The notes: generated by a model from the sequence alone, not told the origin. 15,311 bases of DNA from Escherichia coli (GCF_003334815.1 NZ_QOWO01000056.1), one strand, 5' to 3'. Positions 1,591 through 10,175 are shown, counted from the first letter of the stretch. Made by a program: numbers and translations.

Positions 1591-2475
1591 ATGGATTTAT
1601 ATCACTTTACAGCAATTCCTATGTTGCATTCCATACTTGCATCTGAAGGCCTGAGAGAAGGATATCTAACGTTGTATGATGGAACAATTTTGTATAATAA
1701 AGTATGGTTAACGACATCTCCATTACCATATGGTCACGGATTATGTAACGGTACTGAAAAATTAAGTGAATCAGAAAAATCATTTATGCGAAGAGTCGGT
1801 AATATATCTGAGTCTACGTCTATAAATGGAACACATAATAAAAAGTTAATAAGGTTAAAAATAGATACTGAATGGATAAAAAAGCAGCCTGGATTTTGCT
1901 CATATAAAAAGCTGATGCGTGACCTTGGACAACCTAAAGCTTATGTTAAGTACGTAGGTGCAATGGGGGTTGAGGGGGCAAGGGGGATGACCGATGAGCA
2001 GATAAGTAAAATTATGCGAAAAGGTAACACAAAAGAAGATACCTGGTATATCTTTAATGGGGTCATCCCACCTTCAAAAATAGTCTCTGTTGAATATATG
2101 GAAACTAAAGATAAATATATACCATATGATTTTGAATTGCATGGAAGGGGATATATAGAAAACTCCGGCATTTATCCGATTTCGAATTTATTATTATCTG
2201 ATCTGAATCATACAATGCGAAATATTACATTTTTACCAGGTTCTGTCATAGCGTTTTGTCATAAAGCAAATTCAGAAGAAAATATTTTATTCAGACATGT
2301 ATTATTCACATGTTCAATCTCCTTGAGAAATTTTTCAGTACTGATAGCAACAGGTGATGAGACATCTTTCTATATTCATCTGGATGTATTAAAAAGTTGG
2401 ACTCAAAAAAACAGTAAAGTACTATGCCAACTTTTTGAAAAAGCACGTGAAAGTTACCACAGATACTATGGTTAG
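1591..2475 (+). CDS. Hypothetical protein, 294 aa, AT-rich, function unknown
   Basis: Long ORF in strongly AT-rich DNA with Lys/Asn/Ile-rich codon usage, unlike the flanking IS and backbone. No motif recognised with certainty. The N-terminal LYHFT..SIL..GL pattern is faintly reminiscent of ART-fold (DarT/DUF4433-like) N-termini, but downstream motifs do not obviously match. Confidence 0.6.
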   Translation: MDLYHFTAIPMLHSILASEGLREGYLTLYDGTILYNKVWLTTSPLPYGHGLCNGTEKLSESEKSFMRRVGNISESTSINGTHNKKLIRLKIDTEWIKKQPGFCSYKKLMRDLGQPKAYVKYVGAMGVEGARGMTDEQISKIMRKGNTKEDTWYIFNGVIPPSKIVSVEYMETKDKYIPYDFELHGRGYIENSGIYPISNLLLSDLNHTMRNITFLPGSVIAFCHKANSEENILFRHVLFTCSISLRNFSVLIATGDETSFYIHLDVLKSWTQKNSKVLCQLFEKARESYHRYYG

Positions 2476-2824
2476 AAACCACTGCGGGGAGAACATCAGT
2501 GGCACAAAACTAGACCGCCCGGAACCGGGACGCTTACTGATGGACAGTCATCGCAATGATATCTTGCTGGTTGAGCAGATAGGGGCTCCGTGGGAATTTC
2601 TGCGATAACACCCGCTAAGCGATTTCTCCCTGACGGAAATCACTTGTTTTTCGTTCAGAGGCAGGCAAGAGGAATATTCATCCCCAAAAACGGCGTTTTC
2701 ATATGCGGAAAACGCTGCCGGATAGTCGAATAGTACGACAAACTGACTTCTGACGTTTTCCGTACATTTCAGATTCAGTAACCCCGAATATTTGGGGTTG
2801 GTATGGCTAACGCCTTGAATTTCA

Positions 2825-2977
2825 ATGAACAATATTTTGTTACCGTGTACTGTCGCAGAAATGCCCACGGAACCCCTACTTGGACAGCATGTACTTTATG
2901 AAGTGAATGATGAGGCCAGTCGTGTCAATATCCTGGCGGTTGTAGGCCAGCGTCAGAATCCCCGATTCATTCTTTGA
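2825..2977 (+). pseudogene. Possible remnant of a RelE/ParE-family toxin (C-terminal half only)
   Basis: A 50-codon ORF ends ..GQHVLYEVNDEASRVNILAVVGQRQNPRFIL*, resembling the RelE/ParE C-terminal core (compare RelE ..GYRLVYQVIDEKVVVFVISVGKRER..). No matching N-terminal half was found in any frame upstream. Confidence 0.3.
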
Positions 2978-3012
2978 GTGTCCGGCTTGGAACTCCATCT
3001 TCAGAGAATCGA

Positions 3013-3678
3013 TCAACGTTCTTTAGCTCCTTCCACTAACAGCCGACCTATCTCAAACACCGCAGCTGACCGTCCCGACTTCACCGCTTCGGCTTTCTGT
3101 CCCTCAACAAACCAGTTATTACCGTCCGTTCGGACCAACTCAAACATCCATGACATATCGTAAACGTGTTCCGGGATCAGCGACCCTTCTCCGGCCAGAA
3201 TACCCGCCGTTATGGAGTGGTTGCCCCCGTGCACAAAGCCAATACGCCAGGGCAACCACAGGTCAACATAGTGGTTGTTTTTATCTTGCTTCCACGGCTT
3301 CCCCTTATGGGTTCCAATGCGTGAAACGTTATCGATATAGCGTGGTAGGCTCCAAGGCCACGGCAGCACTATGTCGCTTGCCAGCGACAACGGATAATCA
3401 GCGCCGTTCATCTCACACTCTTTCATCTTTTCGTAAGATTGTATTTGGGTAAGTCCCTTAAAGAAGAACTCCTGCGGGGTCATATCCGGGCGGGCATCTG
3501 TTCCCTCCTCAGCTACCGCCAGCAAGAAATCACTCTGTACTGGCCGCACGATAGCGCGAATGAGATCTGGTAGCGCCTTAACGGGTAGTTTCTCTGCCAC
3601 AGAAAGCAGATGATTGAAGCGTTTTTTTTCATTGGCTATAGTTGCTTTATCTTTCTTGTTTCGGTTCCAGAACATCAC
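3013..3678 (-). CDS. Hypothetical protein, 221 aa, function unknown
   Basis: ORF with a strong upstream Shine-Dalgarno (TAAGGAGGG about 9 nt before the GTG/ATG start); Trp-rich segment PWPWSLP..DLWLPWRIGFVHGGNHS; no family recognised. Convergent with the 294-aa gene. Confidence 0.6.
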   Translation of the reverse strand: MMFWNRNKKDKATIANEKKRFNHLLSVAEKLPVKALPDLIRAIVRPVQSDFLLAVAEEGTDARPDMTPQEFFFKGLTQIQSYEKMKECEMNGADYPLSLASDIVLPWPWSLPRYIDNVSRIGTHKGKPWKQDKNNHYVDLWLPWRIGFVHGGNHSITAGILAGEGSLIPEHVYDMSWMFELVRTDGNNWFVEGQKAEAVKSGRSAAVFEIGRLLVEGAKER

Positions 3679-4247
3679 TGTCTGTAGCCCTCCTTATCGT
3701 GATCAGGATGATGGTTTTCATTCTAATGGTGTAGTAGTTTCACGTCACGCGCACGTGCATATTCTTCGAAAGCTTCGGCGTTAGCCGGTCAACCAGGGGT
3801 TTGAGGCCCAACCGTACGAGATCGTACGCTAAGTTCATTTTTTGAGCAGAAGAGGTGAGTAAAGAAAACGAGGGTTTTGTTTACTCTTCCCGTCAATGCC
3901 AGTAGCCATGCGGTTTCAGGGACTTTCAGTGTTAATAAACTCGGTAATCAAATCAACGTAAACCTGCCTAACAACGCCACGACTTTATTGACTTAAAATC
4001 ATATAGTTAGCTTCTTAGCGTACGTTTCCGCTCCATTGGGCTTCAAACCCCACACCCAATGACATGAGAAAAGCTGGATCTGATTCTCAAAATGCTGGGA
4101 TACCCATCGAGATGGAGAACTCAGTCAATGTTCCATTCTTTCTGAAATATGTGTGGGGACACTGATCTGTCGGGAGCCGGATGCGGTAGTTCCGCAGGTC
4201 CGGTTCTGAGGAGGGGCCCGTCCGGGCAACCGGCGGGTCTACTCACC

Positions 4248-4811
4248 TCATCCCCCTACAACCACTCCCATTCGTTTAAGTATTTTTAAACCTGCTTCCT
4301 GTGGTATCTTTATAGATAAGATCCTGTTTATCTCAGGATTTATATCGAGACCTTCTGTCATTGAAAAATCACAGTGAGACAAATCAGAATGTCTGAACTC
4401 TGTATTATTAAACTCCGAACCAGTAAAATCAGATTTACGAAGGTCTGTTTCCTCAAATAAACAATCACGGAAGCGACAGGATAAAAAAATAGATTTCTGT
4501 AACCGTAAACTAATAAAATCAACAAATCTCAAATCACAATTTACAAGAGAAAAAGTACAGGGAAACATAATGTCTGCTGCATTTACTCCTTGTAATAAAC
4601 AATCTTTGAATTCACAGTCAATAAGTTTAAAAAAATTAAGTTTTAAATTCTTTATTGAGCAGTTTACGAAGCGACATTTTTCGAACTCACAATCGCGAAA
4701 GTTAAAGTTGTCAAGCTGTATTCGTTCAAATATACAATTGTAATAATTTACACCTGATAATTCACTTTCACTGAGGTGTCGTTTTGTGATTCTTTTTTCT
4801 ATTATATCCAT
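4248..4811 (-). CDS. mcbG: Microcin B17 immunity protein McbG (pentapeptide-repeat, Qnr-like gyrase protection), 187 aa
   Basis: Last gene of the mcb operon by position; length matches McbG; pentapeptide-repeat character visible (CIFERIQLDNFNFRDCEFEKCRFVNCSIKNLKLNFFKLIDCEFKDC..). Confidence 0.92.
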   Translation of the reverse strand: MDIIEKRITKRHLSESELSGVNYYNCIFERIQLDNFNFRDCEFEKCRFVNCSIKNLKLNFFKLIDCEFKDCLLQGVNAADIMFPCTFSLVNCDLRFVDFISLRLQKSIFLSCRFRDCLFEETDLRKSDFTGSEFNNTEFRHSDLSHCDFSMTEGLDINPEINRILSIKIPQEAGLKILKRMGVVVGG

Positions 4812-9635: not shown

Positions 9636-9834
9636 GGTCTGGCAGGGCCGGGGGTGGGTAAGGTGAAACCTGTCAATCAGTACCGGCTTACGCCGGTATC
9701 ATATGCAACAACTGAGTGCCGCCTTCCATGCCGCTGGTGCGGCATATCCTGGTGACGATATCTGAATTGTTATAGATATGTATATACGTAGTAATGACAA
9801 GAATAGGATAAGTTAAAAATTTACAGGAGATGCA
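9636..9834 (+). repeat. Copy 2 of the diverged ~200-bp direct repeat, upstream of the small membrane protein gene
   Basis: See copy 1. Conserved hairpins CCGGCTTACGCCGG and ATGCCGC-NNNN-GCGGCAT (loop TGAA in copy 1, TGGT in copy 2, stem identical). Confidence 0.7.
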
Positions 9835-10131
9835 ATGATTCAGACACGTAATCAATATCTGCAGTTTATGCTGGTTATGCTGGCTGCATGGGGCATTAGC
9901 TGGGGAGCCAGATTTGTCATGGAGCTGGCCGTTCTGCTTTATGGGCCAGGAAAAAACTATTTGTTCTTCAGTCATGGTGCTGTTCTGATGTACCTGCTGT
10001 GTGTTTTCCTGGTATACCGCCGTTGGATAGCTCCACTACCGGTCGTTGGTCAGCTGCGCAACGTTGGCGTACTGTGGCTGGTCGGTGCGATGGCCGTGGT
10101 GTATATCGGTGTATTTCTGCTCGATCGATAG
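9835..10131 (+). CDS. Small hydrophobic membrane protein, 98 aa, about 3 predicted TM segments, function unknown
   Basis: Good Shine-Dalgarno (AGGAG 5 nt upstream); three hydrophobic stretches (FMLVMLAAWGISW, AVLMYLLCVFLVY, VLWLVGAMAVVYIGVFLL); GC-rich codon usage in contrast to the adjacent mcb genes. Confidence 0.6.
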   Translation: MIQTRNQYLQFMLVMLAAWGISWGARFVMELAVLLYGPGKNYLFFSHGAVLMYLLCVFLVYRRWIAPLPVVGQLRNVGVLWLVGAMAVVYIGVFLLDR

Positions 10132-10175
10132 GAATATTCCGGCAAGTGTCATCTGTATTTAAAGGTCGTGTGAGT

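Follow-up and report, generated by a model that had tools for sequence, protein, structure and literature searches.

What occupies the DNA beside mcbG, the gene for the pentapeptide-repeat immunity protein of microcin B17 (PMC10912980), and how did it come to lie there? The question is raised by a 15,311-nt stretch of Escherichia coli DNA (GCF_003334815.1 NZ_QOWO01000056.1), termed here the window, in which positions are counted from the first letter. On the minus strand, mcbG (4248–4811) and a gene for a 221-amino-acid protein (3013–3678) are separated by a spacer of 569 bp (3679–4247). An initial annotation described this spacer as about 550 bp without a convincing protein, pointed to two palindromes and a GC-rich stretch prone to form hairpins, and offered three possibilities: operator sites for the 221-amino-acid gene, a decayed gene or a small regulatory RNA (sRNA) locus. 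The non-coding character is borne out, as the longest open reading frame has 56 amino acids and none of the small reading frames listed is credible. Of the three possibilities, the decayed gene comes closest. The tails of two known genes align with the spacer, that of mobF with an in-frame stop and that of a reverse transcriptase with a TGG-to-TGA change, and an intact non-autonomous transposon lies between them. Alignment to a disrupted gene is an outcome that the initial annotation had itself named as refuting its reading.

Judged by homology, remains of mobile DNA are patched together in the spacer: the tail of a relaxase gene, a Tn3-type transposon of miniature size and the terminal part of a group II intron. 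It can be regarded with good confidence as a mosaic junction scar made of pieces of four mobile elements, rather than as a purpose-built regulatory spacer. Its features are ordinary and resolve into known kinds of mobile-element remains. Sequence comparison shows what the pieces are and where they begin and end, that the TIME family (the miniature transposon and its relatives) is mobile and that both gene tails have decayed; the sequence of events, the mobilization by a Tn1000-like transposase in trans and the lack of a dedicated regulatory role are deduced.

The patchwork is apparent from the distribution of matches. In a sensitive BLAST search, 1282 of 72,556 plasmids match some part of the spacer, and most of it is covered in only 97. 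Among the matches listed, those with full coverage are mcb plasmids; the remaining matches are to separate sub-segments, each found in unrelated contexts. Positions 6–89 of the spacer query fall within mobF relaxase genes. Positions 117–374 behave as one unit, found where plasmids of E. coli, Enterobacter, Serratia and Providencia carry no annotation, and both ends of this unit, taken on their own, match beside Tn3-family transposase/resolvase genes. The match to positions 371–569 adjoins ltrA, the gene for a group II intron reverse transcriptase. A 28-bp segment (3768–3795, no strand assigned) between the relaxase and transposon pieces is unrelated to the IncN sequence and is covered, among the matches listed, by mcb plasmids only. 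Read on the minus strand, the order would be the end of mcbG within a repeat tip, 196 nt of intron, the miniature transposon, the 28 orphan bp and an 89-bp mobF tail.

The relaxase piece (3679–3767, minus strand) comprises the last ~30 codons of a MobF-family gene. Window positions 3022–3767 align without gaps to the IncN plasmid pEC448_OXA163 (L004 3339–4084) at 86% identity, and the relaxase homology ends at 3767. Translated on the minus strand, the remnant reads ...FEEYARARDVKLLHH, stop, NENHHPDHDKEGYRQ, stop, and the C-terminus of IncN MobF reads ...YEEYERARDVELPQHEHENHQHDHDKEGYGL, stop; the C-terminal peptide thus aligns with an internal stop, an in-frame TAG, and its position upstream of a DUF6710/fipA gene is kept. 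The remnant also holds the ribosome-binding site of the 221-amino-acid gene, AAGGAGG, which is conserved with respect to IncN.

The 221-amino-acid protein belongs to the DUF6710/FipA-like fertility-inhibition family (Pfam PF20457, E = 1.3e-48); an NCBIfam search with the protein gave no family. FipA is a fertility-inhibition factor of IncN (PMC5696584). The protein is 50% identical across 90% of its length to the product of a gene annotated fipA in JN102344, and its gene shows 86% ungapped nucleotide identity to the gene directly 3′ of mobF in pEC448_OXA163. Gene order, junction and the placement of the ribosome-binding site within the mobF tail are those of the IncN traI(mobF)–fipA module (pKM101 type, and pEC448_OXA163). 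In pEC448_OXA163 the stop codon of mobF and the start codon of the DUF6710/FipA-like gene overlap, and in this native setting the relaxase gene and the FipA-like gene are translationally coupled. The window differs from the IncN module in keeping only 89 bp of a ~3.2-kb relaxase gene, with an in-frame stop, and in having its FipA-like gene in an IncFII plasmid beside mcb, outside any transfer operon. Intact versions of the open reading frame, at ≥99% identity, occur in 90 plasmid records. The same "hypothetical" gene, gene_14 of pMccB17, is an orphan of the DUF6710/FipA family, severed from its native operon, and the orphan protein might still inhibit transfer of rival plasmids.

The miniature Tn3-type element

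The element at 3796–4051 (plus strand) is a Tn3-derived inverted-repeat miniature element (TIME) that is apparently intact and apparently unnamed. It is 256 bp long, within the 50–500 bp range of miniature elements, and has no transposase or resolvase gene; no open reading frame of 40 or more amino acids lies inside it, and those that overlap it have at most 39. Its terminal inverted repeats are 38 nt each and 79% complementary, in keeping with the size (about 38 bp) and the GGGG...ACGYTAAG form of Tn3-family repeats. The left repeat (3796–3833, plus strand) is GGGGTTTGAGGCCCAACCGTACGAGATCGTACGCTAAG and contains a GATC-centred motif at 3813–3828. The right repeat (4014–4051) reads GGGGTTTGAAGCCCAATGGAGCGGAAACGTACGCTAAG on the minus strand.

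Both repeats match 26–32 of the 38 positions of the Tn3 repeat and of a Tn1000-like repeat. Closer matches are found at the ends of larger transposons. The left repeat agrees at 35 of 38 positions with a transposon end beside a resolvase gene on a Klebsiella plasmid, and the right repeat at 34 of 38 with the transposase-proximal end of a Tn3-family transposon on an Enterobacter plasmid; the right repeat also matches, at 32 of 38, a repeat that is split by an intron in plasmid pCss165Kan. The matches to two different transposon ends are what would be expected of an internal-deletion derivative.

Evidence that the family is mobile comes from sister copies. A copy in pH1519-76 is flanked by a perfect 5-bp duplication, AGAAA; one in a 9-kb Shigella sonnei plasmid by GTTCA; and an 84%-identical copy in the Pantoea stewartii plasmid p1 by TAAAC. 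Direct repeats of 5 bp are a signature of Tn3-family transposition (PMC13367494). TIME insertion duplicates 5 bp of the target, rarely 6. The copy in the window has no target duplication. Its left flank is AACCA and its right flank ACACC, and the two flanks were therefore not originally contiguous and were joined by rearrangement. TIMEs can occupy rearrangement junctions without duplications (PMC13367494; PMC4133298), and rearrangements around such copies have been described (PMC13367494).

The family, at 78–100% identity, is found in E. coli, E. albertii, Enterobacter, Serratia, Pantoea, Providencia and Erwinia, in at least ten distinct contexts across seven genera or species, and its core is present in 222 plasmid records. 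Among complete E. coli genomes it occurs in 164 of 5426 (~3%), at 185 places of which 184 are on plasmids. One complete E. coli genome has eight matching places, against a median of one, possibly a sign that the element has recently been amplified there. In each of two Enterobacter plasmids a 255-bp variant is present twice in direct orientation, the copies ~890 bp apart (L007 3001–4145; L012 1571–2715). The pairs have no flanking duplications and nothing is annotated between the copies; the arrangement looks like a composite, or TIME-COMP-like, structure. Structures of this composite kind, formed by TIME-type elements, move resistance genes (PMC13367494).

Among described elements, the closest in kind is IS101, the 209-bp TIME of pSC101, which is likewise short, non-coding, bounded by 38-bp repeats of a Tn3 subgroup and found mostly on plasmids. 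The left repeat of the window's element agrees with the right repeat of IS101 at 34 of 38 positions, counted by hand against Table S2 of PMC13367494, and the IS101 repeat, CGTACGAAAACGTACG, has the same CGTACG-NNNN-CGTACG architecture. IS101 is mobilized by the Tn1000/gamma-delta transposase (PMC4133298; PMC13367494). Because the repeats resemble those of IS101, the element would be mobilized in trans by a Tn1000-like Tn3-family transposase. The two elements differ in length and their internal sequences are unrelated: global alignment of the cores scores no better than with a shuffled core, and the Smith–Waterman z-score is –0.3.

The other miniature elements, MITESen1, TIME244, IMU and TIME1–4, share with it Tn3-type repeats, 5-bp duplications, the lack of a transposase and an expected mobilization in trans. 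None is the same element. MITESen1 also has 256 bp, a coincidence, as the ~52% identity in global alignment is background; TIME244 and IMU have Tn21-type repeats; and TIME1–4 are 262-bp Pseudomonas elements reported absent from Enterobacteriaceae. For Enterobacteriaceae, ISfinder is reported to have listed only MITEKpn1, MITESen1 and MITEEc1 (PMC13367494). No paper with the repeat strings was found in a full-text literature search. Among the matches listed, 24 of 25 records have no feature annotated under the element and the remaining one has an IS1 transposase. A widespread family that is unannotated in these matches and apparently unnamed is the one modest novelty, and a catalogued sequence would aid plasmid annotation.

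The intron remnant and the end of mcbG

Directly adjoining the miniature element is the 3′-terminal part, 196 nt long, of a group II intron (4052–4247, plus strand, antisense to mcb), assigned by homology to an intron of pCss165Kan. Window positions 4049–4256 align over 208 nt, at 93.75% identity, with the 3′ end of this 1911-nt intron and 9 bp of its exon (L002); the pCss165Kan intron begins with GTGCG and encodes ltrA. In the window, the last 31 codons of the reverse transcriptase/maturase reading frame are recognizable (4053–4145, plus strand), and differ from those of pCss165Kan by a W-to-stop (TGG-to-TGA) and an R-to-F change. They are followed on the same strand by the putative hairpins of domain V (~4173–4207) and domain VI (~4208–4247).

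The Rfam model RF00029 aligns in full to 4172–4247, but its 34.4 bits (E = 6.5e-5) fall short of the gathering score, which is 40 for this model; no Rfam family reaches its gathering threshold anywhere in the window. Other matches at E up to 10 (TYMV_upPK, Pinc, ES003, CC2171, sR36) are noise, and only the intron domain V/VI models are credible. Positions 4168–4256 (89 nt) fold at –49 kcal/mol (z = –3.1), which none of 200 shuffles matched. The fold consists of two hairpins, and the A at 4241 (position –7) is bulged; the branch-point A of domain VI is expected 7–8 nt from the 3′ end. The full-length introns of pCss165Kan (NC_022333) and pJJ1887-5 (NZ_CP014320) would share this domain V/VI structure. 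The window intron ends in the dinucleotide CC rather than AY, which is AC in pCss165Kan. With 196 of 1911 nt (~1716–1911), and with neither the 5′ GUGYG, domains I–IV nor a functional reverse transcriptase frame, the remnant is predicted to be incapable of splicing or moving.

The 9 bp that follow the intron, TCATCCCCC (4248–4256, plus strand), probably represent the outer end of a Tn3-family terminal repeat, and constitute the intron's 3′ exon. They overlap the end of mcbG: the complement, GGGGGATGA, provides the last two codons and the stop of the gene (GGG GGA TGA). In copies of the intron elsewhere, the 3′ exons are TCAACCCCC, TCAGACCCC, TCAAACCCC and TCGGAACCCC, and TCAGACCCC is the tip of the Tn2/Tn3 repeat next to blaTEM-1 in pJJ1887-5. 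In both pCss165Kan and pJJ1887-5 the intron sits inside a 38-bp Tn3-type repeat, 29 bp of which lie upstream and 9 bp downstream, and repeat tips are also present 3′ of truncated intron copies in Aeromonas salmonicida and Yersinia similis plasmids.

For the intron family (1911 nt, with ltrA), the homing target seems to be a fixed site in Tn3-family repeats, between 29 inner and 9 outer bp. Sites of this kind are a Tn1000-like repeat (L002 2259–4207), a Tn2/Tn3 repeat (L017 ~1755–3706) and a site on an Aeromonas plasmid (L018 ~3501–3653). A literature search found no paper describing a group II intron that targets Tn3-type repeats.

The junction between mcbG and the intron is identical in three mcb loci inspected, and alignments cross it in every mcbG match among the matches listed from the plasmid set and the 5426 E. 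coli genomes. Among these same matches, no mcbG without the intron/repeat scar (an "empty site") is found. The other end of the intron tail varies among mcb plasmids. One cut is at ~4052, where the TIME adjoins it; another, at ~4071–4082, is found in plasmids typed IncK2/Z (L021 for example); and a diverged lineage has its cut at 4194. A constant mcbG junction combined with variable intron cuts would make the repeat/intron scar older than the TIME junction.

A transposon end may have set the C-terminus of McbG, a well-studied immunity protein. A Klebsiella homologue with 73% identity has 186 amino acids, against 187, and ends in GVIIS where the window's protein ends in GVVVGG; mcbG has therefore lost at most a few codons. 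The diverged mcb-like cluster of Klebsiella does not serve as the ancestral state, as its 3′ end differs and the Tn3-type repeat debris there is its own, oppositely oriented. In the Klebsiella pneumoniae plasmid NZ_CP016160.1 (L022 3711–3938), three Tn3-type repeat-like sequences, oriented opposite to the element in the window, lie within 380 bp after the mcbG stop; one includes ~30 bp that resemble the TIME core. Tn3-family ends may repeatedly have landed or decayed in the region 3′ of mcbG. Carriage of mcb as transposon cargo was considered and rejected: no second Tn3-type repeat is present on the far side of mcb, and the tip at 4256 faces away.

How might the junction have been assembled? 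A Tn3-family element would first have come to sit against the end of mcbG, and the group II intron would then have homed into the repeat of that element, between its 29 inner and 9 outer bp. Later the 256-bp TIME would have cut the intron, creating a new junction inside it, either by replicative transposition within one molecule or through recombination of one TIME copy with another. The joining event would have removed all else of the intron and the relaxase gene, and placed the IncN-derived fipA-like gene beside mcb. For the Tn3-family transposon Tn4401, intramolecular transposition into a group II intron has been put forward (PMC4471558). The scheme gives a concrete picture of how the downstream border of mcb was put together and offers a possible reason for the position of the mcbG stop.

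The scheme bears on pMccB17, the prototype microcin plasmid, which has been published as having no insertion sequences or other mobile elements, and whose gene table leaves 569 bp between mcbG and gene_14, a hypothetical gene of 666 bp (PMC10912980). Because a spacer of the same length lies beside a gene of 666 bp, pMccB17 very probably holds the same intact miniature transposon and three relics. The present analysis refines the published statement.

Alternative explanations

Several points weigh against an origin of the spacer from four mobile elements or against parts of the scheme. Transposition of the window's own TIME copy is something we infer from its sister copies. The identity of the intron rests mainly on homology to the full-length copy, the RF00029 score (34.4 against 40) being below threshold. 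The 9 bp at 4248–4256 agree with known repeat tips at only eight of nine positions, and could instead reflect the target preference of the intron at an ectopic site. No match that would give the origin of the 28 bp at 3768–3795 was found in sequence comparisons. Mean column identity over the whole TIME is 88% across genera, with invariant blocks that include a hairpin with 13-bp arms at 3857–3886, and this conservation of the core hints at a function. Finally, a candidate –10 sequence in the relaxase tail and the antisense intron hairpins at the 3′ end of the mcb mRNA represent possible co-option.

Group II introns are able to retrotranspose to ectopic sites. Perhaps, then, the site after mcbG merely resembled the homing site and no Tn3-family repeat was ever there. 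That ectopic retrotransposition is known generally favours this alternative, as do the small number of base pairs to judge by, nine, one of which differs in TCATCCCCC from every repeat tip seen, and the length of the Klebsiella McbG, which indicates that mcbG was not grossly truncated. Elsewhere, however, the 3′ end of the intron is followed by a Tn3-type repeat tip in all four non-mcb contexts examined, and both full intron copies have the matching 29-bp inner part of the repeat upstream. Base-pairing between a group II intron and its target is mostly in the 5′ exon, and an eight-of-nine match in the 3′ exon is for this reason more simply a real repeat. Ectopic insertion is therefore possible but improbable, and a repeat end beneath the mcbG stop codon is preferred.

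A second alternative concerns present use and is compatible with the proposed origin: the scar, although debris by origin, might now provide a promoter for the FipA-like gene, or hairpins that end or protect the mcb mRNA at its 3′ end, or both. The sole promoter-like site on the minus strand is GTGACG-17-TAGAAT (3748–3720), with a score of 9/12. Its –10-like TAGAAT (3725–3720) replaces GAGCAC of the IncN relaxase gene by the same substitutions that made the in-frame stop, and it therefore arose after or with the truncation of the relaxase gene. Retention of the ribosome-binding site and of an intact 221-amino-acid reading frame in the 90 records agrees with such a use. So does the antisense strand of the intron tail, which folds stably (–48 kcal/mol, z = –2.2), and no terminator-like site is predicted on the minus strand between mcbG and the 221-amino-acid gene. 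On the other hand, the count of promoter-like sites is at background (three found in the spacer, 1.5 ± 1.2 expected), and the hairpins have no T-run after them. Other mcb plasmids cut the intron tail elsewhere, and the two inspected (L020 and L021) have no DUF6710 gene within 3.5 kb of mcbG, so that the arrangement is not required for mcb. Co-option of the scar is conceivable but unlikely.

More doubtful still is the idea that the TIME family remains active, that its conserved core (3857–3886, ~3932–3965 and ~3995–4010) has a function in cis, for example as a site of recombination or resolution, and that intramolecular transposition welded mcb to the IncN-derived fipA module. The conserved GATC of the left repeat might, as part of this idea, additionally make transposase binding Dam-sensitive. 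IS101 has a res site that functions with the Tn3 and Tn1000 resolvases (PMC4133298; PMC13367494). In the core of the window's element, no res-like similarity was found by Smith–Waterman comparison with IS101 and the res regions tested, namely the resolvase–transposase intergenic regions of related Tn3-family transposons (L006, L010), 60 bp at the beginning of L017, where its resolvase gene starts, and, in L005, the end on the resolvase side. Homology of the core to that of IS101 or to these regions was rejected, as z-scores were –1.2 to +1.4, within the shuffle range. If the family were active as envisaged, the TIME could go on rearranging microcin plasmids that share a cell with a Tn1000-like transposon.

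The motifs that had suggested an operator are present, with positions slightly revised. The GATC-centred palindrome, placed initially at about 3816–3831, is CGTACGAGATCGTACG at 3813–3828, with GATC at 3820–3823; it consists of the self-complementary hexamer CGTACG, present twice, with AGAT in between. The 8-bp palindrome, thought to be at about 3752–3759, is GCACGTGC at 3751–3758. The GC-rich stretch at 4190–4245 is as described; it includes GCCCGTCCGGGC (4216–4227) and corresponds to intron domains V and VI. Compared with 500 dinucleotide-preserving shuffles of the spacer, no palindrome class is above the shuffle range. One perfect 8-bp palindrome is observed and 1.93 are expected; palindromes with 5-bp arms number five, against 2.7 expected; and those with 7-bp arms and a loop of up to 4 nt number one, against 0.16, a count reached in 13.6% of shuffles.

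All three motifs are explained because they fall within the left repeat of the TIME, dead relaxase sequence and intron domains V/VI. CGTACG-AGAT-CGTACG would be a putative transposase-binding portion of the repeat. GCACGTGC is a single-substitution accident within dead coding sequence, as its IncN counterpart, AACGTGCG, differs by one A-to-C change, and the GC-rich hairpins would be those of domains V and VI. The motifs matter through their parent elements, symmetry being beside the point; the palindromes themselves, by-products of mobile-element ends and a dead gene, matter little.

It is accordingly very improbable that the palindromes at 3813–3828 and 3751–3758 bind a regulator of the 221-amino-acid gene. 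Both are upstream of this gene and GCACGTGC abuts the –35-like hexamer of the only minus-strand promoter-like site. However, GCACGTGC is absent from the IncN homologue, and the 16-nt motif, shared in architecture with the right repeat of IS101, belongs to a transposon repeat that travels to unrelated loci and keeps it whatever the neighbouring gene; nor is there an adjacent regulator gene. An sRNA locus is just as hard to credit: stable structures exist at 4168–4256 and in the conserved hairpin of the TIME core, but the former are intron domains V and VI, the only RNA that Rfam finds, the best sRNA matches have E > 3, no promoter/terminator pair brackets any segment or stands out over shuffles (the initial annotation had proposed such prediction as a check, and its outcome is background), and homology explains each piece better.

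The wider window

A second miniature inverted-repeat element is present at 2582–2876. It has 295 bp and 39-nt arms of the GGGGCTCCGTGGGAATTTCTGCGATAACACCCGCTAAG type that are 82% complementary, and lacks a target duplication (AGATA vs. TACTT). Of 362 plasmid records that match, a sizeable fraction share its left ~75 bp, and only seven hold the whole region. Homology to the usual mcb plasmid (L008) begins exactly at 2877, the right end of this element, inside a relE/parE toxin gene; the 295-bp element therefore also marks a rearrangement breakpoint. Left of 2877 the window differs almost wholly from L008, and only 1235–1507 matches, at 96%. Upstream of mcbA, ~400 bp are replaced or inserted at 9729–10136 relative to the same plasmid.

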